From positions 121,690 through 185,689 of the forward strand of contig CAUASB010000002.1 of the NCBI GenBank assembly GCA_958431815.1: a DNA stretch of 64,000 bases, given 5' to 3'. The translations under genes were made by a program, and so were the position numbers. Under the pieces are notes generated by a model. The model saw only the letters and a program-made list of their open reading frames with translations, did not search any database and was not told the DNA's origin. Shown one piece after another: positions 2,634 through 29,514 of this stretch. Position 1 is the stretch's first letter, and every line of letters begins with the position of its first letter. Source of the stretch: an uncultured Eggerthella sp. (GTDB taxonomy: Bacteria > Actinomycetota > Coriobacteriia > Coriobacteriales > Eggerthellaceae).

Positions 2634-4970
2634 TTATTTGGAGGAAGTGGTTCCCGGCATCATACGACGCGCGTCGAATACACCATCGACGGTACGAAGC
2701 TTCGACAAGATGCGATCGATAACTGCCGTGTCCGAAACCTGGAACAAGAAGCGCATTTCAACCATGCCATCGCGATGTGTGTTCGTGTTAACCGAAAGCA
2801 CGTTGGCGCCATGATCGGAAAGAACCGACGCCACATCGATAAGCAGGTTCAAGCGATCGAGCGCTTCCACGAAGATCTCGACGTTGAACGAAGTGCCGCC
2901 TGAAGGGCCGTCCTCCTCCCAGAACACCTCGATAATGCGCTCGGGATGCTTCTTCAACTCTGCTGCATTCGGGCAGTCGTCGCGATGGACCGAAACGCCG
3001 CGGCCGCGGGTAACGAAGCCCACGATTTTATCGCCCGGTACTGGGTTGCAGCAACGGGAAAGACGCACCAGAACATCGTCGATGCCTCGCACCACCACGC
3101 CATTCGAAGAATGCGTTTCGTGCTTCTTGGGACGCTTCACGCTGGTGAGCATAGGCGGCATCTTACCCGTCGAAGATGCCGAGGTGCCCATCAGGGGCTT
3201 CGACGCCTCTTCGGTGCCGTTGTCCACCAAGATCTTCAGCATGCGGTTGGCAACATGCATCGGCGCTTCCTTGCCGGTGCCGATGTTCACCAGCATATCG
3301 TCGGCATCCTTGTAGCCCATGGCCTCGGACACCTCGCGCATGGCGCGCATACTCTGGGCACTGGAAATGCCGAACCCATGCTTGCGCATTTCGCGCATCA
3401 AGATGTCGCGGCCTTCCTGCAAATCGTCGGAACGGCTGATCTTGGCGAAATATGAGCGGATCTTCGAACGGGCCGAAGGCGTTTTCACGATGTTCAGCCA
3501 GTCGCGCGAAGGCGTGGCGCTTTTCTGGGTAAGGATCTCTACGCGGTCGCCCATCTGCAGCTTGTAGGACAGGGGCACGATGGAACCGTTCACCTTGGCG
3601 CCCACGCAGTGGTAACCCACTTCCGTATGGATGGCGAAGGCGAAATCAACCGGAGTGGAACCGAAGCGCAGGCTCATGGCCTTGCCCTTCGGCGTGAACA
3701 CGTAGACTTCCTTCGGATCGAGGTCGGTTTTGAGCGATTTCAAGAACTCGCGCGAATCCTTGGTTTCGTCCTGCCAATCAACCATTTCGCGCAGCCAGGC
3801 AATCTGCTTGTCGAACGCCGATTCGGCACCCTTGCCGCCCTTTTCCTTGTAGCGCCAATGCGCCGCAACGCCGTATTCGCTCATGCGGTGCATTTCCTCG
3901 GTGCGGATCTGCACTTCAAGCGGGCGGCCTGCTGGGCCGATGACCGTGGTATGCAAGCTCTGGTACATGTTGAACTTCGGCATGGCGATGTAATCTTTGA
4001 AACGCCCGGGCATCGGGTGCCACAGGCTGTGCACCGCGCCCAACGCCGAATAGCAATCCTTCACCGATGTGGTGATAATGCGCACGGCGATAAGGTCGTA
4101 GATCTCAGAAAAGCCCTTGCCCTTCTTCGACATCTTCTGATAGATGGAATACAAGTGCTTCGGGCGGCCCATGATTTGGGATTCCACGCCGATTTTGCTC
4201 ATTTCGCCGCGAAGGATGGAAATTACCTTTTGCAGGTACTCCTCGCGGTCGTGGCGTGTTTCGGCAACCATGCGGGAAACCTGCTTGAACTTGGTAGGCT
4301 CCAGGTAAAAGAACGCCAAGTCTTCCAATTCCCATTTGATGGAGCTGATGCCCAAGCGGTGCGCAATGGGAGCATAGATTTCCAGCGTTTCGCGTGCCTT
4401 GAAGATGCGGCGGTCTTCGCGCAGCGCGGAAAGCGTGCGCATGTTATGCAGGCGGTCGGCAAGCTTGATAACAATAACGCGAATGTCTTTGCTCATGGCA
4501 ATGAGCATCTTGCGGAACGTCTGCGCCTGTTCGTCGGAAAGCGTTTCAACCTCGATCTTCGTGATCTTGGTAACGCCATCGACCAAATCGGCTACCGAAT
4601 CGCCGAACAGCTCTGCCACCTGCTGCTTAGTTGCCGTGGTGTCTTCCACGGTGTCGTGCAAAAGCGCAGCGATGAGCGTTTCAACGTCCATGTGAAGGTC
4701 GGCCAAGATGATGGCAACCTCTACCGGATGGATAACGAAGGCCTCGCCCGACTTGCGCTTTTGGCCGGCATGCATCTTTTCCGCAAAGTGGAAGGCCTTT
4801 TCCAGCAAGGCCAGCTCGTCTTTGTCCAGATAGGTGGAAGCCAGCCCTTCAAGCGCCTTGAAACGCTCTTGCGGGTCGGAGCCAACCGGCGCCGAGGTGG
4901 CTGATTTGATGGTGGGGTCAACGGAAGAAGCCACCAAGCCAACTGGATGGAATTCGTTGGTGTCAGACAT
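2634..4970 (-). CDS. rel: Bifunctional (p)ppGpp synthetase/hydrolase (RelA/SpoT family)
   Basis: 778 aa with HD hydrolase region (HDTVEDT), RelA_SpoT synthetase region, TGS and ACT-like C-terminus. Confidence 0.9.
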   Translation of the reverse strand: MSDTNEFHPVGLVASSVDPTIKSATSAPVGSDPQERFKALEGLASTYLDKDELALLEKAFHFAEKMHAGQKRKSGEAFVIHPVEVAIILADLHMDVETLIAALLHDTVEDTTATKQQVAELFGDSVADLVDGVTKITKIEVETLSDEQAQTFRKMLIAMSKDIRVIVIKLADRLHNMRTLSALREDRRIFKARETLEIYAPIAHRLGISSIKWELEDLAFFYLEPTKFKQVSRMVAETRHDREEYLQKVISILRGEMSKIGVESQIMGRPKHLYSIYQKMSKKGKGFSEIYDLIAVRIITTSVKDCYSALGAVHSLWHPMPGRFKDYIAMPKFNMYQSLHTTVIGPAGRPLEVQIRTEEMHRMSEYGVAAHWRYKEKGGKGAESAFDKQIAWLREMVDWQDETKDSREFLKSLKTDLDPKEVYVFTPKGKAMSLRFGSTPVDFAFAIHTEVGYHCVGAKVNGSIVPLSYKLQMGDRVEILTQKSATPSRDWLNIVKTPSARSKIRSYFAKISRSDDLQEGRDILMREMRKHGFGISSAQSMRAMREVSEAMGYKDADDMLVNIGTGKEAPMHVANRMLKILVDNGTEEASKPLMGTSASSTGKMPPMLTSVKRPKKHETHSSNGVVVRGIDDVLVRLSRCCNPVPGDKIVGFVTRGRGVSVHRDDCPNAAELKKHPERIIEVFWEEDGPSGGTSFNVEIFVEALDRLNLLIDVASVLSDHGANVLSVNTNTHRDGMVEMRFLFQVSDTAVIDRILSKLRTVDGVFDARRMMPGTTSSK

Positions 4971-11178: not shown

Positions 11179-12381
11179 CTACCGTATTTGCATAACGAAA
11201 ATCTCGAACAGGGAAACGATGATGAGGAACGCGAAGTTGTACACCTCGAAACGCGCTATGAACTTGCCGTTGTTGCCCAAGCCCGACTTCTGATACTGGC
11301 GCAGCGTGATAAGCGTGGCCAACGAAGAAATGGGCGTACCAACTGCGCCTACATTGGTGCCCAGGGCAATACCCGCCCAGTCGTTGGAAAAATGGCTGAT
11401 CAGGATAGCGCTGGGAACGTTGCTGATAACCTGGCTGCTGATAAGCGAAGTGACGAATGCACCGCACGTAGCTAACACATCGGAAAACAGTTGGGAAATA
11501 GCGGGAATCTGGGCAATGTTGCCGCCGAAAATAAAGAAGCACACGAACGTCAGCACCAGGGCGTAGTCTGTTTTAGCAAACACGCGCCGGTCCGTTATGG
11601 CAAGCACCACCACAATGGCAACCATGCCCATAAGGTACGGCACCGCATCAACCGTCATGGCAATGCACAGCGCAAACAGCACCGTATAGATGGCAACACG
11701 AGGCTTGGAAAGGCGGATGCTTTCCGGTTTCTTGTAGTGGAATTCGGCTTTCTTCACGAAGCAGCAACGCACAAGGATAAGCGCAACCGAAAGGATGAGC
11801 GGCGGCGCCATGGTGGCCACGAAATCACCGAAATCAACGCCGAACACCGAGTACAGATACAGATTGTGCGGATTGCCGAAGGGCAGCAGCATGCCACCCA
11901 AGTTCGCGGTGAGAGTGATGACGATAAATGCAAACGGAATCTCCGCTTCCCTATTCACCGATTTCAGCAGCACCACGGCCAAAGGAAGCACCGTAACCAG
12001 CGTCATATCGTTCGAAAGAACCATGGAACAGCACAGCGTTACCAACACCAATGCAATTACCAACGCCCGTGTGCTGTTCACATGTTCCACCAGGGAATGC
12101 GCCACATATTCAAGCAAACCGGAAGAATCGATGGCGGCAATAACCGCCAAGATGCTGAACAGGCAGGCAAGCGTATGCCAATTGAAGTAGCTTAGGTACT
12201 CCGCAGAAGGCGGCACGAAGAACATGGTCACCAACGCCGCCAGGGCTGAAATCACCAGCAAGGGGTTGTGCGCCAAAGCGCGTTCGGCGGCACGTTCGGC
12301 CGAGCGCGCACGCATCCCCGCAAGGTGAATGCCGTGATGCTTTACGTCCAAATCATCAATATGTTCGCTTAAAAGCTTCAT
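11179..12381 (-). CDS. ArsB/NhaD (CitMHS-like) anion permease
   Basis: 400-aa polytopic membrane protein with the internal repeat architecture typical of citrate/arsenite permeases. The ATG sits 6 nt downstream of a TAGAAT -10 box, so possibly leaderless. Confidence 0.6.
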   Translation of the reverse strand: MKLLSEHIDDLDVKHHGIHLAGMRARSAERAAERALAHNPLLVISALAALVTMFFVPPSAEYLSYFNWHTLACLFSILAVIAAIDSSGLLEYVAHSLVEHVNSTRALVIALVLVTLCCSMVLSNDMTLVTVLPLAVVLLKSVNREAEIPFAFIVITLTANLGGMLLPFGNPHNLYLYSVFGVDFGDFVATMAPPLILSVALILVRCCFVKKAEFHYKKPESIRLSKPRVAIYTVLFALCIAMTVDAVPYLMGMVAIVVVLAITDRRVFAKTDYALVLTFVCFFIFGGNIAQIPAISQLFSDVLATCGAFVTSLISSQVISNVPSAILISHFSNDWAGIALGTNVGAVGTPISSLATLITLRQYQKSGLGNNGKFIARFEVYNFAFLIIVSLFEIFVMQIR

Positions 12382-12542
12382 GGGTCCATTCTACGCCTGC
12401 ATATTCCTGAAGCGCGAATTCACTCGAAGCATTTTTGCGGCTTGATATGGCGTTATGCCCAGTTGCAGCTCAATTTGTAGCGTAGAATCCCCCTATGGCG
12501 TTTCGCCTTTCCGGGCGGCATCTTCGAAGAGAGGTGCGGCTT

Positions 12543-12620
12543 ATGGACCAAGAAACCGTGATTGTGCTTTGCGCGATATTCACCGTGATGATTGGGATCA
12601 TCGAGCTTACCCGGAAATAG
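12543..12620 (+). CDS. 25-aa hydrophobic peptide MDQETVIVLCAIFTVMIGIIELTRK (copy 1)
   Basis: Own -10 TAGAAT (12483-12488) and GAGAGGTG SD. Versus copy 2 there are 8 synonymous and 3 conservative substitutions, which argues that the plus strand is the coding strand. Confidence 0.7.
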   Translation: MDQETVIVLCAIFTVMIGIIELTRK

Positions 12621-12629
12621 GAGAACGGT

Positions 12630-12722
12630 ATTGGAGTATAAGAAGAGCCGGGCAAACCCTCTACAGTAACCCGGCTCCTTAGAACAACGATGCCGCCCGG
12701 CCTGGCGGGACGTCATCTTCTG
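12630..12722 (-). ncRNA. Putative convergent antisense sRNA over the peptide 3' UTR (copy 1)
   Basis: Minus-strand TATACT -10 (plus 12729-12734) sits 5 nt outside the conserved block. Minus-strand hairpin GAGCCGGG..CCCGGCUC (plus 12645-12677) is followed by UUCUUAUACU. Confidence 0.45.
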
Positions 12723-12825
12723 CTTGCAAGTATAGCAGAGGCGCTCCATCGAATAGGGCCCTACGCCAAATGAAGGATAGGATAAGAACGACAAACGCCT
12801 TCCAACCGTTCGCCGCAAAGAAGCC

Positions 12826-13161
12826 CTACGCGTAAAGCACCGTATACAACAGCAACGCAAAAACGAAAGCGGAAACACACTTGGTGAAAGTGATTAAGTC
12901 CCGATTCGTTTCACGGTTATGGCTATCGGCATACCAATTGCCAACAACGCGCGACTTGGCATCGCTCACCGTACTTCCCATCAGGTATTTGGCAAGCTGA
13001 AACAGCCCAAATACCACCAAGCCAAGAATCAAAAGAAATCCCACCGCAACCGTCCCCTTCCGTAGTGTGTTTATGCATTGTTTGGACAATGCACACCATA
13101 CGGAATTGAAACGCTTTCGGTGTACAAGAAAGTTCCCAGTTGCTTCGAATAACCTTTGCAC
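12826..13161 (-). CDS. Small hypothetical two-TM membrane protein (true start probably downstream of 13161)
   Basis: Two hydrophobic helices (VAVGFLLILGLVVFGLFQLA and CVSAFVFALLLYTVLYA). The N-terminal 25 codons overlap a perfect palindrome. Confidence 0.4.
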   Translation of the reverse strand: MQRLFEATGNFLVHRKRFNSVWCALSKQCINTLRKGTVAVGFLLILGLVVFGLFQLAKYLMGSTVSDAKSRVVGNWYADSHNRETNRDLITFTKCVSAFVFALLLYTVLYA

Positions 13162-13303
13162 TTAGCGCATCGGTTGATTCATTAGCGGCAGGAAGCGTCA
13201 GCAGCTAAACGCTGAGCCTCAATACGATGCCGAACTCTGCAGCCGCTTCACCATCTTGAACTGCTGTAAATTATTCGGAGACTCAGCCTCAAGGCAGCTG
13301 CGC

Positions 13304-14125
13304 TCAAAGCTTCAGCGCATGCTTCGGGCACGCATCAACGCAGCTCAGGCACAGGATGCATTCGGTGCCCCGTTCACGGTTTCGCGCGTTGTTGGTCATA
13401 TCCACATCCATAGGACACGCACGCTTGCAAGCGCCGCACTTAACGCAAAGGCTGTGATCGCATTTGATCCTTAGAAGCGAAACGTGTGCGGCAGGCTTCA
13501 TGAGTAGGCCCACAGGGCAAAGATACTTGCAGAACGCCCGATTATCCCAAAGCGCGAAGGCAAGCGAAATGCCCACCATGTAGTACAGAACATTTCCGAT
13601 AACGAAGGCCGCAAAAAGCGTTTGCTCCCTGTTTTCGGCAAACAACAAAATCAGCGCGGCTATTGCTATCGAAGCAGCAAGGAAAACGAACCTCATCCAT
13701 TCCCATTTCGGACGCTTCTTCTGCCTTGCTTTGAACGGCAGAAGGTCCAGCACCATTGCTGTCCAGCAGGCGTACCCGCAAAAACCACGGCCGAACAGTA
13801 CCGGCCCGGCAATCTTCGCAACAAGGTAGTGAATGGTTGGCCCCGAAAACACGCCCAGGGCAAGGTAACACCAAAAACCTTCTATCTGCATGTTTTCGCC
13901 TTCGTAGAGGCCAAGAAAGCCAAGCAGGTAAAGGCCCACGGCGAATTGGACGAAACGCCGCGCATGCTTCCACTTTGCCGAATACAGCGCAAGACCAACA
14001 GCGATGCAAGTACCGATGTAGCTGAAGTTGAACAGATAGAAGATATTGCCAAGGCCCAGCCACAAGCCAACAGCAACAGCCTCAAAAATCAGCCAGATTA
14101 AGAGCGGAATGCGATATTGAGCCAT
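13304..14125 (-). CDS. Membrane polyferredoxin-like 4Fe-4S protein (NapH/MauN-like family)
   Basis: Several TM helices plus two C-terminal CxxCxxCxxxCP clusters. ATG at 14123-14125 with a GAAAGG SD; the track ORF begins at a TTG at 14185. Confidence 0.6.
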   Translation of the reverse strand: MAQYRIPLLIWLIFEAVAVGLWLGLGNIFYLFNFSYIGTCIAVGLALYSAKWKHARRFVQFAVGLYLLGFLGLYEGENMQIEGFWCYLALGVFSGPTIHYLVAKIAGPVLFGRGFCGYACWTAMVLDLLPFKARQKKRPKWEWMRFVFLAASIAIAALILLFAENREQTLFAAFVIGNVLYYMVGISLAFALWDNRAFCKYLCPVGLLMKPAAHVSLLRIKCDHSLCVKCGACKRACPMDVDMTNNARNRERGTECILCLSCVDACPKHALKL

Positions 14126-14268
14126 GAAGATCCCGCCTTTCCATGCACTCGACGCATTTTTGCGGTCTGATATGGGGTTATGCAAACAATCATATCAGCA
14201 GATAGGATAGAATCCACCTATGGCGTTTCGCCTTTCCGGGCGGCATCTTCGAAAAGGAGGTGCATGCG

Positions 14269-14346
14269 ATGGACCAAGAAACCGTAATTGCGCTCTGCGC
14301 GATTTTTACCGTTGTTATTGGAATCGTCGAACTAACCCGGAAATAA
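14269..14346 (+). CDS. 25-aa hydrophobic peptide MDQETVIALCAIFTVVIGIVELTRK (copy 2)
   Basis: AGGAGG SD 7 nt upstream and TAGAAT -10 at 14208-14213. Paralog of 12543..12620. Confidence 0.7.
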   Translation: MDQETVIALCAIFTVVIGIVELTRK

Positions 14347-14367
14347 GGAGAACGGTGTCGGAACATA

Positions 14368-14450
14368 AAGCGAGCCAGGCTCACCCTAGAAAAGTAACCT
14401 GGCTCCTTTAAGCAACGATGCCGCCCGGCCTGGCGGGACGTCATCTTCTG
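14368..14450 (-). ncRNA. Putative convergent antisense sRNA (copy 2)
   Basis: Minus-strand extended -10 TGATATAAT (plus 14457-14462). Hairpin 14372-14405 carries a compensatory G:C to A:U change relative to copy 1. Confidence 0.45.
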
Positions 14451-14546
14451 CTGAAGATTATATCAGAAGAAAACCTACCTATAAAACGTGCGCTGCGGCT
14501 TCGTGGCATGGCTTTGCTTCATGTTTAAACGTCAGCTGACTAACGG

Positions 14547-15431
14547 CTATTCCTCTGGGAACAGCTCGTCTAGAATCTCTTGCGTCGGCATCTTAGCGCC
14601 ATACCAAATCTCCTCGCCGCTCGCAGCTTGCTCGATCATCATGCCAATGCCGCCAATAACCTTGCAGCCCTTCGCCTTAGCATCTTTGAGAATCTGGGTC
14701 GTGCGCGGATGATAGACGGTATCGGCCACAACCATGCCCTCTTTAATCAGCTCGGCAGGCACAGAAGTCTGGCCGGCGCTATCCCCCATACCAACAGGAG
14801 TGGCGTTGATAAGGATGTCAGACTCAGCAATGGCCTCCTTCATTTCTTCCTTGTTCTCAAACGCATGAAGAATCATCTCGGCACCCGTCTTTTCCTGAAC
14901 ACGAGGAAGAAGGATGGTCGAACGCATATAAGAAGGACCACCTTCACGCGCAAACACATGTACCCTCTTGGCGCCATCCAGCGCAGCCTGAACAAGAACC
15001 GCAGAACCCGCGCCACCAGGGCCGACCACCGTGATGGTTTTATCCTCTATTTTCTCGCCATGGTTGCGAATGTTCTGCATCATGCCCGTGCCGTCGGTAT
15101 TATGGCCGATAATCCTGCCGTCCTCTTCCTTCTTTAAAACATTTACGGCGCCCATAAGCTCTGCGCTGTCGGAAAGCCCATCAAGCAAAGGGATAATCGC
15201 CTGCTTGCACGGCATGGTAACGTTGCTCCCGTCCCAGCCATCCATGCGCTTCATAGCAGCAATGATGCTGGGCAGATCGTCCCGTTGCACATCGAACACG
15301 ACGTAAACCGAGTCGACTCCCAGCTTTTCGAAGGAAAGGTTGTGAGTAGCCGGCGACATCGAATGACGAATCGGGCTGCCCAACAGGCTAATAAGGTGAG
15401 TGTGTCCGCTGATTTTGGTTTTCTCTGACAT
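14547..15431 (-). CDS. aroE: Shikimate dehydrogenase
   Basis: SLLGSPIRHSMSP and the NADP-binding GPGGAGSA motif. Confidence 0.85.
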   Translation of the reverse strand: MSEKTKISGHTHLISLLGSPIRHSMSPATHNLSFEKLGVDSVYVVFDVQRDDLPSIIAAMKRMDGWDGSNVTMPCKQAIIPLLDGLSDSAELMGAVNVLKKEEDGRIIGHNTDGTGMMQNIRNHGEKIEDKTITVVGPGGAGSAVLVQAALDGAKRVHVFAREGGPSYMRSTILLPRVQEKTGAEMILHAFENKEEMKEAIAESDILINATPVGMGDSAGQTSVPAELIKEGMVVADTVYHPRTTQILKDAKAKGCKVIGGIGMMIEQAASGEEIWYGAKMPTQEILDELFPEE

Positions 15432-17151: not shown

Positions 17152-17712
17152 GTTTGATTACCAGTCAGTTCGACACTGCTCCAAAACTGTGAAGGCGGTT
17201 TGAACCATCGGCGCTAGGTTTGATTACCAGTCAGTTCGACACTGCTCCAAAACTAGCAACGGGAAGGCGGAAGGAGCTTTCCGTTTGATTACCAGTCAGT
17301 TCGACACTGCTCCAAAACTCGAATGCAGCTTCTAAATCCCAGTAGCCTGTTTGATTACCAGTCAGTTCGACACTGCTCCAAAACGACACCGATTCAATCC
17401 ATTTTATCGGCAGGTTTGATTACCAGTCAGTTCGACACTGCTCCAAAACCGAATGGCATAGCCGAATTTCATAAAGTAGTTTGATTACCAGTCAGTTCGA
17501 CACTGCTCCAAAACTCATGCCGTTTGACAGATTAAAGCCGTCGCGTTTGATTACCAGTCAGTTCGACACTGCTCCAAAACGCTTCTGCATACGTCTTTGC
17601 TCGTAGGCAAGTTTGATTACCAGTCAGTTCGACACTGCTCCAAAACGCCGAGAGGATCCCGTTCGCGCCGATCGACGTTTGATTACCAGTCAGTTCGACA
17701 CTGCTCCAAAAC
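17152..17712 (-). CRISPR. CRISPR array: 9 identical 36-nt repeats (plus strand GTTTGATTACCAGTCAGTTCGACACTGCTCCAAAAC) and 8 spacers of 29-30 nt
   Basis: Repeats start at 17152, 17218, 17283, 17349, 17414, 17479, 17545, 17611 and 17677. The crRNA-sense repeat (minus strand) is GTTTTGGAGCAGTGTCGAACTGACTGGTAATCAAAC, typical for type II-A. The leader is next to csn2. Confidence 0.95.
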
Positions 17713-17767
17713 CGTTGGGGCAAAATCCCTTCTGCATAGGGACGGCCAAACTAGACTGGCAAACTTA
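17713..17767 (-). promoter_or_regulatory. CRISPR leader and promoter region (minus-strand TTGATA overlapping the csn2 stop)
   Basis: Position between the csn2 stop and the first repeat. Confidence 0.4.
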
Positions 17768-18448
17768 TCAATATTCAAGAAAGTCCAGGTCAATTACTTG
17801 TTTTCTCTCATACTGATAAGATTCAGCATCGTGCTTATTTTCCAGCATAAGCACCTTGGTTTTCGTATAAAAAATGTGCTCGTAAAGCCTTTTTAGCTCG
17901 TTTTTCGTCAAAAAAGTTTTGAGATTCACAAACAACAAGACCTTACTACACTTTGCGTCAAGAGCTAAAGAAAGAAACGATATCAGGCTATCAATGAGCT
18001 TTTCTTCGGGCATCGCATCGACCCCGAAACCCAGCATTTTCAAGCACTTGGGCAAATTCCATTCTATTCCAAAAGCATAGTCAGCAGATAGTCCACCGCT
18101 CAGTTCCATCAACCTGGAAGCAAAAACTTGCTCTACCTTTTCAAGGCCCATCCTCGTATCTTCATCGTCGATAAGGTCCTTTTCGATACGCTTAACGACC
18201 TCACCCAAAAGAGATCGATCATCCCACGGCAGATTGAAAACATCAGGGACAAAAAGGAAAGAACCTTTCGGCGATACTTCTTCCTCATTTTCCCAGAGAG
18301 AATATGCCTCTTTGGCATATCTCCCCTCTTGGGAAACGAGAGAACCCACTAATCTAGAAAACAAAGCCTGGTTTTCAACCTGAAAAACAGAAGGGAAACC
18401 AGAATCAATCTCTAGAGCCTGTTCTAGCCCTTCAAATACGAGCTTCAT
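17768..18448 (-). CDS. csn2: Csn2 (short form, type II-A)
   Basis: 226 aa. KVLLFVNLKTFLTKNELKRLYEHIFYTKTKVLMLE resembles the Streptococcus pyogenes Csn2 C-terminal region. Sits downstream of cas2. Confidence 0.8.
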   Translation of the reverse strand: MKLVFEGLEQALEIDSGFPSVFQVENQALFSRLVGSLVSQEGRYAKEAYSLWENEEEVSPKGSFLFVPDVFNLPWDDRSLLGEVVKRIEKDLIDDEDTRMGLEKVEQVFASRLMELSGGLSADYAFGIEWNLPKCLKMLGFGVDAMPEEKLIDSLISFLSLALDAKCSKVLLFVNLKTFLTKNELKRLYEHIFYTKTKVLMLENKHDAESYQYERKQVIDLDFLEY

Positions 18449-18780
18449 AGGATCAGTAATTCTTCCATAGTGTCAACCTCGTCATATGCAGGGCGACTTC
18501 CCGTGATGAACTCCATAGTGGCATATGCTGCTTCGGAAACCTTCAAAACTTGAACAAGACCAGCAGGAGGTTTGTTCTTCCTCAATCTTCCTATAGCCGC
18601 ACCCGCCGCACCTTCATTAACCACGAGCTTTGCGTAAACGGATTCCTGCAGTTGAAGGTACCCATCCTTCAACAAGAACTTACGAAAAAGCCGATAATCT
18701 TTTCGCTGCTTAGCAGTTTTTACCGGCAAATCGAAAAATACCATTAACCTCATGTAGCGAATCCGATCTGAACCACTCAT
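18445..18780 (-). CDS. cas2: Cas2
   Basis: 111 aa; MRLMVFFDLPVKTAKQRKDYRLFRKFLLKDGYLQLQESVY. Confidence 0.85.
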   Translation of the reverse strand: MSGSDRIRYMRLMVFFDLPVKTAKQRKDYRLFRKFLLKDGYLQLQESVYAKLVVNEGAAGAAIGRLRKNKPPAGLVQVLKVSEAAYATMEFITGSRPAYDEVDTMEELLIL

Positions 18781-19655
18781 GCGACCTCAAAAGGCTCGAT
18801 TTCGCTCAAGGAGAGCTTTCTTCCAAGGGCGCTTAAACAATCTTGGACGTACAGGGAAATCACCGAGCTCAAACGGTAAGAGCCACCACGATAAGGAATT
18901 GCGGTATTCAGCATATCAACCAATAACCGCCTGATGCTCTTAGAAAACTCACCCTCGACATTGTCGTAAACCAATTTGTCGACAATGGGGCGAAACGGCT
19001 CCATAAGGTCACAGCTTAAATTGTATTGATTGTATTCGTTTCTGTGGCAGATGCCGATTTGGGTCAAATAGCCCCTTGCCACAATCTCCCTGTTAACCGA
19101 AGAAAGCAAGATTGAGTATCCGTAATTGAGTGCGGCATTCGTTGGAGTGTCTTGCTCTCGAGAGAATTCATTGCCAAACAAGGCTTGGAAATAAATCCGG
19201 GCCGCATGGGCTTCCCTTTGGGTTGGGTCACCCGAGCGAACCTCGGGAACGAGCTCCCGCAAACGAGCGCCCCACCCTTCTTCGGCACGAGCTTCGAGCA
19301 CGGCTGCTTGATGGGTAATTTTGTCCTGAACCACGCGCTGCCATACCCGTTTCTTGATTGGCTCACCCCATTCAAGCTGTTCACCAATCCTTTTGCTAGT
19401 GTTGTGCGCACCATATAAAGGCAAATACTGACCAATCGGATTTCGCTTCTCATCGGAAATCACAAGCGGCACCTTCTTCTTCGCAAGCTCCGATAAAAGG
19501 TAGGCGCTTATAAACGCCTGGTTGGTCTGCAAAACCACCGAGGAAAGATCGTCAAGATGAACCTTTGCGGTATCGTCTTCCTTCCGGATAACCATATACC
19601 CGCCCTTATAGGTGCACTTGCAGGGGCTCTCGATTATGACGTTTCTAAAGCCCAA
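18777..19655 (-). CDS. cas1: Cas1 (type II)
   Basis: 292 aa; N-terminus MGFRNVIIESPCKCTYKGGYMVIRKED is collinear with the Streptococcus pyogenes Cas1 N-terminus. Confidence 0.85.
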   Translation of the reverse strand: MGFRNVIIESPCKCTYKGGYMVIRKEDDTAKVHLDDLSSVVLQTNQAFISAYLLSELAKKKVPLVISDEKRNPIGQYLPLYGAHNTSKRIGEQLEWGEPIKKRVWQRVVQDKITHQAAVLEARAEEGWGARLRELVPEVRSGDPTQREAHAARIYFQALFGNEFSREQDTPTNAALNYGYSILLSSVNREIVARGYLTQIGICHRNEYNQYNLSCDLMEPFRPIVDKLVYDNVEGEFSKSIRRLLVDMLNTAIPYRGGSYRLSSVISLYVQDCLSALGRKLSLSEIEPFEVA

Positions 19656-22600
19656 TTCGAGTCCGTCTCTCGAACATACCCGTTACGGACTGATCAACGA
19701 TTACAAAATCGACCTCCGGATCAGAGATAAGCTTTGAATAATTCGGCTGCAGTGCCCCAGCGAACTTGCTCCCGCCGACCATCGAAAGATCAACTTTGTT
19801 CATCACGGCATTGATCGAAGAGATTAGAGACCTTACGGCGCTTATTTTAGAAACAGAGTCAACGCTAGCAAAAGCCTCCTTAACATCGTCGATATGAAGA
19901 ATATCGTAGTGCTTTACTCCAATCAGCTTGCCTTGCTTTGATATTGAGAGGAATACCGCTTCAGCAGACCCAACCCTCTCATTTAGAGGAGCACTCTCAT
20001 CGAGCATGTTAGACAGGCATTTAACCTCATCTTGCGAAAAGGAGAGTTGGCGAGCATTTCTCATCTCGCTCTTTCCGGTAACTGAAAATCTATCCCCATC
20101 AATCTCAATCAGTTGCTTCTTGAGGATCTTCGCCCTTTCGATGCGAACAAACTTGAGCTTCTCGGCTTCAGCAAGCTCCATCGCATAGCGCTCTAAGGCG
20201 CTCTTATCCCCCTCTATTTGAGACGCCAACCATACAGGGACTTCTGCAAAACGGAACACCCGTTTATCCTTCTTGTCTCGTGCTTCATATACGAAGAAGT
20301 AGGCAAACTGCTGGCTTGAGAAACCACCGTATTTCTTCGGATCAAGACCCTTCTTCAAAGGAAGGGCAAGCTTCGGGCCCATTTTTGGATCTCGCGGAGA
20401 ATAAATCGTCGCCTTCCAGAATGTTCCCGTATCCTCAACAGGCATACGAGAGATATAGCACTGCCTACAATTCAGCGCTTTGCGAATACCCTCAACCTCA
20501 GCTTCGGCATCCCAAGCATCCTTGAATATCTCGCCCGTTTCCTTATCGAAGCCCGAGCTCATAAAGCTGTTCACGATAAAGCCGCTCGTGCCTGGCGCAT
20601 GATGGTCGCGATTGAACAACTTCGACTGTTGACGAACATATTTTTCCATCGCACGAGTCATGGCGATGGGATTCTCGTATACCTTCGGATGGCGCATCTG
20701 AATAAACAGGCCCATGCGACACGCCAAATAAGCATCGTGCGCATGATGGAAATCGTTCGCCTCACGGCACTTTACGAAACCAGCAGCCTCACGCAAATCA
20801 TGAGACATGCTCGCCTTCACAGGAACGATTTGCGTTTCAGGGTAGCGAACAGAAAGCAATGACCCGGCAAGCTTAACGCTTTGGCTGGTTTCTACTAGCT
20901 GACGAGCAACAAAACCTTTCATCGCCTTTTCATCAATACGGTCGCGCAACAAATTGCGATGTTTCTTCGGGCCGATTAGCTTCGCGTCAAGAAGCGCATT
21001 CCAATACGGCTTCATCTTGTGACGAATTCCCTGAGGGAGAAGCATTGCATCGGTTTTGCTTTGGTTGAATTCTCTTAGCACCAAAGCCTTATTTTCCAAG
21101 CTATCGTCTTTGATGTACGAACGGGGGATGATGTGGTCCACCTCGTAATCGCCGCTTGATAACCTATTGATGTCGATAGGCTCACCGGAATACAGGCATT
21201 TGCCGCATTGCATGAAATACAATGTCAACCTCTCATCGAGTTCTACAGGCGAAATGCCTTTCAGCTCCCCTAAGGTTTCATTCCCTCCCTTGCAATACTC
21301 TGGATATTCTTTTTTGAATACCGTCAGCGCCTCTTTCAGCGCATCGTAGCGACGCTTGGTTCTTTTCCCTCGCTTATCCAGTTCATCATCACGAGTAACC
21401 TCGATAAATACGTTTTTAGGATCTTTGCCGGCAATCTTAGCAATCTCGTCCACAATGCGGATGGTTTGGTTCAAGTTCCTGCGGATAGCGGGAGAGCCAG
21501 GCAGTTCGTTCACTTCAAGGGATTTTCCCTTTTTGCCGAAGTAATTCTGGTTGAATTCATCGATCTTCTTTTGGAAGCCCAGATCTTCATCGCGAAGGAT
21601 TTCCATCATCACCATGGTGCGACCCTTGCTGCCTGCATTTGGATCACCTTCACGGAGCACATCCATGATAGAACGGGGTCCACAATCAGTATCTACCTTG
21701 ATACCGGTCAGGAACCTCTGGGAGAGTCTGCCCCACCCAGTGAAACGCTTACGGCAAATCTTCCTGATCTGCTCGTTATTCAAGCGACCATTCCCTTTGG
21801 GGCCATAGGTTTCCTCGAGCTTTTCCTTAAGGATCTTCCTATCCTCGAACAACGTATTCCACAGGATAATCTGCTCAATCATTGGGTAATCGGCAGGGTC
21901 AATTACATCAACGTCGAAGATATCCTTTCGGAAGAAGAAATACGATGAGAGCTTCGACTCGTAGCCGCTTTCACCTTGGCCGCCACGAACATGAACGTTC
22001 ATATGACCAAGCTCACGCTCAAGAAAGTTCGCGACGTCTTTGTACTTAATGGTCTTCTTTTTCTTGAACAGCTCTTCGATAATGGCTTCCCTATCGGCAG
22101 CATCGAATCGGTATTCCCTATCACCATCCATGCTCCACTTAGAACCATTGAGTTCATTGAGCACGCAGTACTCTTCGTATAGCAAAGAACACTTCGGCAG
22201 CACGTCTTCGCCTTGAAGGTATGAGCACATGCCCGTCATGCGCGTGATAAATGCTTCGGCACTTTTGCCCTTGTCGATAACCTCGTCCCAATTCCATGGG
22301 GTAATAGCAACACCTTCCATGCCAGGCTTGCGCGCAGACCAAGCAAAACGATTCTGGCCATGCTTATCTTTACGCGCATTCTTGCTGGTAAGCGGGCCAA
22401 CATAGTAGGGAATACGGAACGATACAAGAGATTTGATTTTGCTCGCGTTTTCCACAAGGAAAGGATAGTGCTTGCCCTGGTTTTCGATAATGGCACTCAG
22501 CTCTTCGAGATGCAGCTGATAGTAAATACTCCCATTGTCGCTGGTCTTCAGCCTACGCAAGAACCGTTGCTCTCCAAAATCAGCCATCATACGCTGGTAG

Positions 22601-23857
22601 CGCGGATCTTCTTCTGCCGCACTTCCCGCAAACAGCTTTTTCACTGCTTTTTCGAAGTCCTCGTACGCCATCTTGGAAGTGCCTAAGTTGTACTTTGTGT
22701 AGCCCTTAGCTTTTGAAGCGTTGTAGATGTTCAGCACACGCCCATCTGCATCACGGTAGAATTCGCCTCTGAAAAAAGAATCGTATTCGCTTGGAACGTA
22801 TTCGCGAACAAGCGCCTTGAGCGTTTTAAGGTCTTCGGCGTACTTGCAGTATTTAGCAACCATATTCGACGAAATGGTTTCGCCCGGCGCATACGACAAA
22901 AGCCCCTACAGCACATAAGCCGAGTACACCCCGCAAAGCGCGTTGAACAGTTCTGCCCCCCTCATCGGGAATCGCTTCGCGCAAAGCATCTACCGCTTCA
23001 TCGTTAGAAAGGTAGATGGAGGTTTGCTCTGCCGTCATTTCGCCAAACACATTCTTGAACTCGGCTTTCAAGCCAACCATGGCTCCCGCCAAAGCATCGT
23101 TGCATGCTTTGCTTTCCTTCGCGCCGTCGTTCATAGCAACTCCAATAAGAGACGCAATTCGCTTCTTTTTATCGGAATTGGCAGTGTGCTCTTCCTCAAG
23201 AATCGAAAGGATCTTTTTCGGCCTTTCATCTTGTGCGCCAGGATCAAATTCGTAACCAAGCTCGGCACACCAATCCGCCAACGCCGACCACAACGACCTC
23301 AGCGCATCAAGGGGCTGAGCATTCTTAGCACTCAGGTTCGTGCTTTCCTGGCGAAGGAAATTGCCACGATGCTTCACGATGTTATGCGCCGCCAGATAGA
23401 TAAGACGGATATCGGCCTTTTCATTCGTTTCCATAAGCCACTTACGAAGGTGGTAAATGGTAGGAAATTTCTTGTAGTAATCCGCTTCCGCGAAATCCGA
23501 ATCATTGAACAAGGGATGACCGTATTCACGATGATCCTCTTCCCTGTCTTCCTTCAGCAACCGCGCCTGACGAAGCCTGATAAAGAATTCAGGATCGACC
23601 TTCGAAACCTCTTCATCGAAGAGGCCTTGCAGTAAATCCAGGCGCCAACGACGACGAACATACCGCCTGCGCTGCCCACGGGGAATCCGAGCAGAAGCAG
23701 CTGTTTCTGCTGTATCGAACAATCGACTGCCCCACGTAGGCTGCTTCTTGAAATGGAGCAATTGCCCATCTTCATCGGTTACTGCCCAGCCGACCGACCC
23801 AGTGCCCATGTCCAGGCCGATATTGTATTCACCTTTGTAGTTCCTTAAATTAGCCAC
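19645..23857 (-). pseudogene. cas9: cas9 (type II-A) disrupted by a -1 frameshift and an in-frame TAG
   Basis: N-terminal frame (to 22853) has RuvC-I IGLDMGTGSVGWAV and is collinear with SpCas9 up to ..IPDEGG. C-terminal frame (19645..22905) has the HNH motif DYEVDHIIPRS and RuvC-III NDFHHAHDAYL. GTG start at 23857. Confidence 0.8.
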
Positions 23858-29429: not shown

Positions 29430-29514
29430 TGGTAGGAGCGGTGGGACTCGAACCCACAAACCCGAAGGTGGCGGATTTTAAGTCCGCTGTGTATGCCAAT
29501 TCCACCACGCTCCC
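29430..29514 (-). tRNA. tRNA-Leu (anticodon UAA)
   Basis: Cloverleaf: anticodon loop CUUAAAA, long variable arm, T-arm GGTTCGAGTCC, encoded CCA. Confidence 0.75.

Follow-up and report, generated by a model that had tools for sequence, protein, structure and literature searches.

The toxin messenger RNAs (mRNAs) of hok and of aapA1 are closed by pairing between their 5' and 3' ends, with the Shine-Dalgarno sequence (SD) occluded. In Bacillus subtilis, the antisense RNAs SR4, SR5 and SR6 bind the 3' ends of their toxin mRNAs and recruit RNase III, and SR4, bound to the 3' end of bsrG mRNA, also induces a structural change that hides the ribosome-binding site (RBS) (PMC5848175). Families of such toxin-antitoxin (TA) systems of type I have up to now appeared confined to single phyla, essentially Proteobacteria and Firmicutes (Coray et al. 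2017, PMC5367252). The paper describing T1TAdb counts 24 families, assigns the architectures that it describes to Gram-negative hosts or to Gram-positive hosts of the Bacillus/Staphylococcus/Enterococcus type, and never mentions Actinobacteria. Our own search of the literature found no report of a type I system for Actinobacteria, Eggerthella or Coriobacteriia. Here we describe a small module, present in two direct copies in a 64,000-nucleotide (nt) stretch of DNA from an uncultured Eggerthella sp. (the window; contig CAUASB010000002.1, positions 121,690 to 185,689), which encodes a hydrophobic peptide of 25 amino acids (aa) on the plus strand and, by prediction, a convergent antisense RNA on the minus strand. 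An earlier note, made from the letters of the window alone, had interpreted it as type I TA-like, and the sequence comparisons below support that interpretation. We consider it likely that each copy is an autonomous type I TA-like module. The modules probably form a new type I family in Coriobacteriia, carried on chromosomes and on small Eggerthella lenta plasmids.

The duplicated unit and its peptide reading frame

The two copies lie at 12418-12739 and 14143-14467. A repeat search resolved them into five collinear blocks at a spacing of 1725-1728, and their mean column identity in a MAFFT alignment is 86%. The two best-conserved blocks are identical between the copies over 35-40 nt, and core blocks of 29 and 35 nt each have two exact occurrences in the window against an expected number of 0. 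This bears out the two direct copies of ~305 bp described in the earlier note, except that the unit is slightly longer, at ~320 bp, because the repeat blocks span the whole of these two intervals.

Each copy holds a plus-strand open reading frame (ORF) for the peptide (Table 1). As had been claimed, the two ORFs differ at 11 codons, eight of them synonymously and three by conservative replacement. By the Nei-Gojobori method this corresponds to 8.5 synonymous (Sd) and 3.5 nonsynonymous (Nd) differences, with proportions of 0.56 at synonymous sites (pS) and 0.07 at nonsynonymous sites (pN). Variable columns in 14 representatives of the family number 7, 5 and 20 at codon positions 1, 2 and 3, respectively; the pooled pN/pS of the peptide frame is 0.23, and 13 of 22 peptide residues are invariant. 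The core ALCAIFTV is invariant despite synonymous change, and the VIGIV that comes next is nearly so (I17 and I19 are invariant). Judged from these substitution patterns, the peptide frame is under purifying selection. Among homologues the frame is kept with synonymous drift, the opposite of the pattern (nucleotide blocks conserved without the peptide frame) that the earlier note had associated with a purely cis-regulatory RNA.

The same note had also argued from the antisense frame, in which the codon changes between the copies are non-conservative. That argument proved weak: the antisense frame that shares third positions with the peptide frame is also conserved, with a pN/pS of 0.31 vs 0.23. 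Because this frame too scores low, pN/pS alone is not decisive. Nor does an open-frame test discriminate, several frames being open in the G+C-rich 75-nt ORF stretch. From stop to stop, the antisense frame extends over 22-121 codons, and neither a start nor an SD is conserved in it. All chromosomal lineages examined have the ATG, a GGAGG 6-9 nt 5' of it and an ORF of 25-27 aa, and in the plasmid copy described below, read directly, GGAG stands 5' of the ATG of a 28-aa ORF. In these alignments, the plus-strand ORF is marked out by its kept ATG, its SD and its length of 25-28 aa.

The peptide has a polar N-terminus, ~16 hydrophobic residues and a charged C-terminus, and the grand average of hydropathy (GRAVY) of residues 6-20 is 2.8-3.2. 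It has the form expected of a type I toxin, namely a small ORF (<60 aa) for a hydrophobic, membrane-spanning peptide, here of 25-28 aa. Six members of the family were compared with the toxin peptides of Pfam and NCBIfam (Hok_Gef, Fst, Ldr, Ibs, TisB, ShoB, holin-like toxins and others) and had no match; at E <= 10, the Pfam/NCBIfam scan of the six gave chance matches to unrelated hydrophobic families, far under the cut-off. None of the Rfam antitoxin RNA families (Sok, RNAII/par, RatA, SR4-type, Sib, IstR, OhsC, Rdl, SprA1as and others) reached gathering score anywhere in the window, and at E <= 10 the interval 12300-14600 gave nothing but a chance match to a small nucleolar RNA. The statement that the sequence belongs to no described family thus holds for Rfam, Pfam and NCBIfam. 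The peptide is essentially invisible to annotation: a query with a 41-aa extended ORF found just 2 related entries among 5.8 billion proteins, both of them artefactually extended ORFs.

The predicted messenger RNA and its antisense RNA

A -10 element TAGAAT and an SD had been noted upstream of each ORF, and both were read in the sequence as claimed (the SD is GAGAGG in copy 1 and GGAGG, 14256-14260, in copy 2). Across lineages, a -10-like hexamer stands at a constant distance from the 5' arm of the helix described next; it is TAnnnT in most lineages and of the CATnnT type in one group. In the predicted fold of the mRNA, the 5' and 3' ends are paired in both window copies and in the plasmid copy (z = -3.9 for the latter). 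Complementary 12-mers in the 5' and 3' untranslated regions (UTRs) had been taken to suggest fold-back control of translation. They are present, and they form part of longer arms of 28 nt. RNAalifold, applied to the 14 representatives, returned a two-part closing helix (columns 2-13/262-274 and 18-26/250-258) plus a hairpin in the 3' UTR. The closing helix joins the mRNA 5' end to the 3' end by 21 bp, which are 96-97% paired, with double changes. Counted on a structure derived from the very alignment under test, which is a caveat to these figures, 96% of cells are paired over the 28 pairs of the long helix and hairpin, compared to 31-46% for partners displaced by 1-3 columns, and double-sided changes occur in 11 of the 28 pairs, compared to 1-4 in these displaced controls. 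The covariation score of the 28 pairs was reached by 0 of 500 shuffles. Covariation, which the earlier note had proposed looking for at homologous loci, is thus seen in both the long helix and the hairpin.

The closing helix can also be assigned to a strand. Two of its columns are U·G in 14 of 14 sequences, and G·U cells number 43 overall. On a transcript of the minus strand each of them would be an A·C mismatch, which places the helix in the mRNA. The fold-back idea has accordingly taken the form of a covarying, plus-strand-specific helix between the two mRNA ends. Directly 3' of the 5' arm lies a pyrimidine-rich anti-SD, and the SD is predicted to sit in a local hairpin in all lineages. With an SD unpaired probability of 0.01-0.43 and an opening cost of 7-14 kcal/mol, both predicted, the mRNA would be restrained in the manner of type I toxin mRNAs.

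On the minus strand, a -10 element sits directly past the 3' arm in every lineage. The claim of a minus-strand -10 could be extended to the whole family, in that TAnnnT is kept in all lineages, the variants being TATACT, TATAAT, TATAGT, TATCAT, TATTAT, TAGAAT, TAATAT, TAAAAT and TATAAC. Most lineages also have a TTGCGC-like -35 exactly 17 nt upstream of it, with a spacer of unconserved sequence. The covarying hairpin lies ~85 nt downstream of this promoter, and in 12 of 12 lineages T makes up 4-7 of the 10 nt that follow the hairpin on the minus strand, compared with 0-3 on the plus strand. The hairpin with its U-rich tail, as first described, is therefore a covarying structure whose tail is confined to the minus strand, and the compensatory change reported between the window copies was found again (GAGCCGGG/CCCGGCTC vs GAGCCAGG/CCTGGCTC). 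The tail ends ~16-20 nt 3' of the stop codon in both window copies. The predicted antisense RNA has a consensus of two stem-loops, the 5' one using minus-strand-specific G·U pairs. Its complementarity takes in the entire 3' UTR, with the 3' arm of the closing helix, but leaves out the ORF. Because it covers the 3' arm, it repeats the sequence of the mRNA 5' arm. Type I systems have a gene for an antisense RNA, opposite the toxin gene and complementary to the toxin mRNA over a long stretch, and such a gene is in this way predicted in all lineages.

A minus-strand promoter followed by a terminator is also attenuator-like, and both window copies lie directly upstream of minus-strand genes (starts at 12381 and ~14128). 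These two observations would suit a cis-regulatory RNA, be it a leader, riboswitch or attenuator, running from the minus-strand promoter into the leftward genes, with the small ORF incidental. We regard this explanation as largely refuted and very improbable. At other loci (L006 and L009 in our numbering) the left gene is on the other strand or unrelated, the G·U pairs assign the long helix to the plus-strand RNA, the peptide frame is under purifying selection with its SD and ATG conserved, and Rfam gave no match to the module even at E <= 10.

For the type I TA-like module, the effect of antisense binding was modelled by forbidding pairing of the 3' arm, with the ribosome site defined as -14 to +3. 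In this thermodynamic model, masking the 3' arm raised the mean cost of opening the ribosome site from 10.1 to 14.8 kcal/mol (mean rise 4.7). A rise of more than 1 kcal was obtained in 12 of 15 lineages on masking the 3' arm, in 0 of 15 on masking the hairpin and in 2 of 15 on masking an equal stretch of coding sequence. In most lineages the freed GGGCGGCA is predicted to pair with the SD-AUG spacer, and the anti-SD hairpin to grow from ~6 to ~14 bp.

These predictions suggest the following scheme. The plus-strand promoter would give an mRNA of ~230 nt for a 25-aa single-helix membrane peptide, presumed to be the toxin. The first 28 nt of this mRNA would pair with the last 28 nt, as the covariation indicates, and this closure may protect both ends, while the local hairpin with the anti-SD just 3' of the 5' arm would hold the SD. 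The convergent promoter just past the mRNA 3' end would give an antisense RNA of ~85 nt that covers the 3' UTR, and this RNA and the 5' arm may compete for pairing with the 3' arm. The ~85-bp duplex would be a substrate for RNase III, leaving an mRNA stripped of its protective closing helix and open to exonucleases, and the freed 5' arm (GGGCGGCA) would fold onto the SD-AUG spacer and lengthen the anti-SD hairpin, for a tighter shut-off of translation. If the antisense RNA were lost, for example with its carrier plasmid, closed and stable mRNA would give some translation, and the peptide would insert in the membrane and arrest growth. In its fullest version, this would be the first type I family of Actinomycetota, with an antitoxin RNA that mimics the mRNA 5' end, out-competes it for the 3' arm, exposes the mRNA to decay and re-locks the ribosome site from ~170 nt away, a logic that would be new, and it would act as an addiction system on the 3.8-kb E. 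lenta plasmids. We put this full version forward tentatively, as a possibility that falls short of being probable.

Table 1. Features of the two module copies in the window (RNA ends and promoters are predictions; MFE, minimum free energy).
Feature	Copy	Coordinates	Strand	Basis
Upstream conserved block	1	12418-12458		88% identity to 14143-14183
Upstream conserved block	2	14143-14183		Repeat search, alignment
-10 box TAGAAT, promoter of peptide mRNA	1	12483-12488	+	Read in sequence
-10 box TAGAAT, promoter of peptide mRNA	2	14208-14213	+	Read in sequence
Predicted peptide (putative toxin) mRNA, ~230 nt, ends inferred	1	12495-12724	+	MFE -93.8 kcal/mol, z -4.2
Predicted peptide (putative toxin) mRNA	2	14220-14452	+	MFE -97.1 kcal/mol, z -5.4
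Long-distance helix, 5' arm (AUGGCGUUUCGCC ... CCGGGCGGCAUC)	1	12495-12522	+	Inverted repeat, covariation
Long-distance helix, 3' arm (GAUGCCGCCCGG ... GGCGGGACGUCAU)	1	12689-12716	+	Inverted repeat, covariation
Long-distance helix, both arms	2	14220-14247 with 14417-14444	+	Inverted repeat
Anti-SD GCAUCUU paired with SD region GAGGUGC, local hairpin	1	12518-12537	+	MFE and constrained folds
Peptide ORF, 25 aa and stop, MDQETVIVLCAIFTVMIGIIELTRK	1	12543-12620	+	Read directly, ORF list, codon analysis
Peptide ORF, 25 aa and stop, MDQETVIALCAIFTVVIGIVELTRK	2	14269-14346	+	Read directly, ORF list, codon analysis
Antisense promoter, extended -10 TGCTATACT	1	12729-12737	-	TATACT at 12734-12729, TGC before it
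Antisense promoter TTTATA-17-TGATATAAT; -10 element TGATATAAT at 14465-14457	2	14457-14485	-	10/12 matches, TG present
Antisense terminator hairpin GAGCCGGG/CCCGGCUC	1	12645-12677	-	U-rich tail at 12636-12644
Antisense terminator hairpin GAGCCAGG/CCUGGCUC	2	14372-14405	-	Covariation, tail T counts
Predicted antisense (putative antitoxin) RNA, ~86 nt, ends inferred	1	12637-12722	-	5' stem-loop and terminator
Predicted antisense (putative antitoxin) RNA, ~88 nt	2	14363-14450	-	Folds, promoter, consensus

Distribution, genomic context and alternative explanations

A search with a DNA profile found 39 instances of the module, 32 of them distinct, in ~8 lineages from Eggerthellaceae and Atopobiaceae genomes and gut metagenomes. 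A homologue search had been called for in the earlier note; the modules that it found lie beyond the local setting of the two window copies and keep the peptide frame. On this profile evidence the module is a family and not a local oddity. A scan for the peptide pattern in one genome per species gave 9 loci, which belong to Eggerthellaceae metagenome-assembled genomes (MAGs), Ellagibacter isourolithinifaciens DSM 104140, a Paratractidigestivibacter (Atopobiaceae) MAG and an archaeon-binned contig. The E. isourolithinifaciens module (locus L006, 3930-4210) is on NZ_WAJR01000030.1, near 8.6 kb. A metagenome scan gave 26 further loci, from human gut where the record names state the source. Because these scans demanded the exact words LCAIFTV[MV]I or CAIFTV[VM]I (the genome scan also MDQETVI[VA]), they underestimate the true spread of the family and would miss the divergent plasmid type. 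The archaeon-binned contig (L007; CAVBAM010000297.1, 2.6 kb, binned as a Candidatus Methanomethylophilaceae archaeon) has a downstream gene syntenic with that of the Eggerthellaceae locus L004, and is probably a mis-binned contig and not an archaeal copy.

A weak tblastn match led to two 3.8-kb E. lenta plasmids, NZ_CP089332.1 and NZ_CP089339.1, which are termed cryptic and multicopy in the paper that reported them (PMC8778435). The plasmid copy is divergent (peptide MDAQTVIAVCELLLVVVALIDLVGRRDE) and keeps every RNA feature, the closing helix included. The chromosomal DNA profile matches it over the full length with E = 3.7e-25. In NZ_CP089332.1 (p529-1D_1 of E. lenta APC055-529-1D; L036) the module is at 2365-2615, where no feature is annotated, and the plasmid otherwise codes for a replication protein, two helix-turn-helix (HTH) regulators and two hypothetical proteins. 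The window module itself had no blastn match in plasmids or phages. A tblastn search with the plasmid peptide gave no match, not even to the plasmid copy, a result that we ascribe to the low-complexity filter of BLAST. Searches of phage and viral collections found no copy (blastn and tblastn against phages, and a peptide scan of viral contigs). A loose pattern, GGGCRGC-N(150-180)-ATGCYGCCC, gave 120 loci in viral contigs, and none of these was a module by nhmmer profile, the best being partial with E = 0.012.

The genes next to the module are unrelated between lineages and occur on either strand, and the MAG genomes that could be checked carry two or more copies each, at separate sites. The variable neighbours and scattered copies suggest that the module is autonomous. 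Multiple copies per genome, together with a copy on small plasmids, might also be expected of a plasmid-type antisense element for copy-number control, or of a non-coding repeat or miniature mobile element. A further point in favour of such an element is locus L001 (= L010) of a related genome, which has a single chimeric module at 3921-4221 between a CitMHS transporter gene and aroE; the 1.7 kb separating the window copies is absent there, as if the direct repeats had recombined and deleted it. Against either kind of element, the plasmid module lies ~1.4 kb from rep, outside the rep leader; the repeat search showed neither terminal inverted repeats nor target duplications; no copy turned up in viral and phage collections; and conservation is gene-like over promoter, SD, ORF and terminator. 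We give such an element hardly any credence.

A non-toxic small membrane protein, such as an accessory or regulatory subunit or a stress peptide, deserves more weight, although we consider it unlikely. A cis-antisense RNA and the structure of the mRNA would adjust its synthesis, and it would play no part in addiction or growth arrest. The coding and RNA evidence is equally compatible with any tightly regulated small membrane protein, both window copies adjoin membrane-protein genes (CitMHS and a Fer4 membrane protein), and one lineage tolerates a read-through ORF. However, no partner gene is conserved, because the genes beside the module are unrelated from one lineage to another. Multiple copies occur at scattered sites, one of them on a 3.8-kb cryptic plasmid with little besides rep and HTH genes, and a closed mRNA with an occluded SD and a convergent antisense RNA is the architecture described for type I toxins (T1TAdb paper).

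Several points weigh against the type I TA-like interpretation. Promoters, RNA ends and the switch are all predictions, as are the transcription, toxicity and antitoxin activity of the module. A canonical terminator is lacking for the plus-strand mRNA, which makes the position of its 3' end uncertain. In the models the SD is closed off in either state, at a cost of 7-14 kcal/mol to open, so that it is hard to see how the peptide would be made, and in the window's own copies the SD hairpin is identical in both states. In L001/L010 the stop codon is lost (70 aa; protein P0002, 23 member sequences) and the long helix has A·C mismatches, damage which suggests that the module can decay without obvious harm. 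A small hydrophobic peptide may also be controlled by an antisense RNA without being a toxin.

Other features of the unit and the window were also recorded. The 41-nt upstream block is restricted to the window-type lineage (also L001 and L002), and the 22 nt between it and the -10 box are unrelated between the copies. The block may serve as a promoter for the leftward gene or as a site bound by a regulator. Within it, TATGGCGTT is a near-repeat of the mRNA 5' end. A LexA/SOS box in this block was considered and dropped, as inspection by eye found just a half-site-like TCGAAG without a palindrome. Between the copies lie a 111-aa ORF (12826-13161, minus strand), which has no Pfam match, and the Fer4 membrane protein gene (13304-14128); together they are the 1.7-kb segment missing from L001. 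A CRISPR-Cas locus of type II-A occupies 17152-23857, 2.7 kb to the right of copy 2. It consists of an array with 9 repeats of GTTTGATTACCAGTCAGTTCGACACTGCTCCAAAAC (17152-17721), csn2 (17768-18448), cas2 (18445-18780), cas1 (18777-19655) and cas9, which is divided between two ORFs that overlap, 19645-22899 (REC to PI domains) and 22853-23857 (bridge helix). The split suggests that cas9 is frameshifted, has become a pseudogene or was misassembled. Linkage to a CRISPR array as in C. difficile (PMC5961336) was considered for the module and dropped, the array being 2.7 kb off with aroE and aroD between; the gene neighbourhoods listed for the other lineages are unrelated, and no screen of them for CRISPR arrays was made. 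A transfer RNA gene at 29433-29514 on the minus strand, whose variable arm is long and whose anticodon is UAA (Leu type), is the sole Rfam match at gathering score in the window.

Comparison with described type I systems

The module falls in none of the families considered here, because profile matches fail and because its antisense RNA has a different position relative to the ORF or the 5' leader. With bsrG/SR4, bsrE/SR5, yonT/SR6 and txpA/RatA of B. subtilis it shares a convergent 3' antisense RNA, and the RBS-hiding effect of SR4 on bsrG parallels the behaviour predicted for the Eggerthellaceae module. In the Bacillus families, however, the antisense RNA overlaps the ORF (T1TAdb paper), whereas the one predicted here stops short of the stop codon and covers no 3' part of the ORF. 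Unlike theirs, its predicted target is a single arm of the helix that holds the mRNA's 5' and 3' ends together. The Bacillus families belong to Bacillota and have peptides of 38-59 aa, whereas the module belongs to Actinomycetota and has peptides of 25-28 aa. No sequence similarity and no Rfam or Pfam match connects them.

The Gram-positive systems fst/RNAII (par of pAD1) and sprA1/SprA1as have RNAs that overlap at their 3' ends outside the ORF (T1TAdb paper), as in the module, and fst/RNAII stabilises a plasmid. Their functional pairing, in contrast, is outside the overlap, at the 5' translation initiation region, whereas the overlap in the module holds the conserved 3' arm. There is no sequence or profile similarity between these systems and the module.

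A closed mRNA with an occluded SD is common to the module, hok/sok of plasmid R1 and aapA1/IsoA1 of Helicobacter pylori, and hok/sok, like the module, occurs on plasmids plus chromosomes in several copies. The antisense RNAs of hok/sok and aapA1/IsoA1 lie inside the mRNA and bind its 5' region, whereas that predicted for the module covers the 3' arm, and its promoter is at the 3' end and not at a 5' leader or mok. Activation of hok and aapA1 mRNA by 3' trimming is a further difference. The module has no mok-like leader ORF and no Hok-type peptide, and no upstream ORF is conserved, the in-frame extension of copy 1 being out of frame in copy 2.

If gut Coriobacteriia have a type I family, the class reaches into a phylum new to it, and vectors for these genetically difficult, drug-metabolising gut bacteria could profit from a stabilising module that is native to cryptic plasmids of E. 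lenta. Together, these comparisons suggest that the module may combine a closed mRNA, as in hok, with a 3' antisense RNA like those of Bacillus, directed at the closing helix, an arrangement that would amount to a testable remote control of translation.

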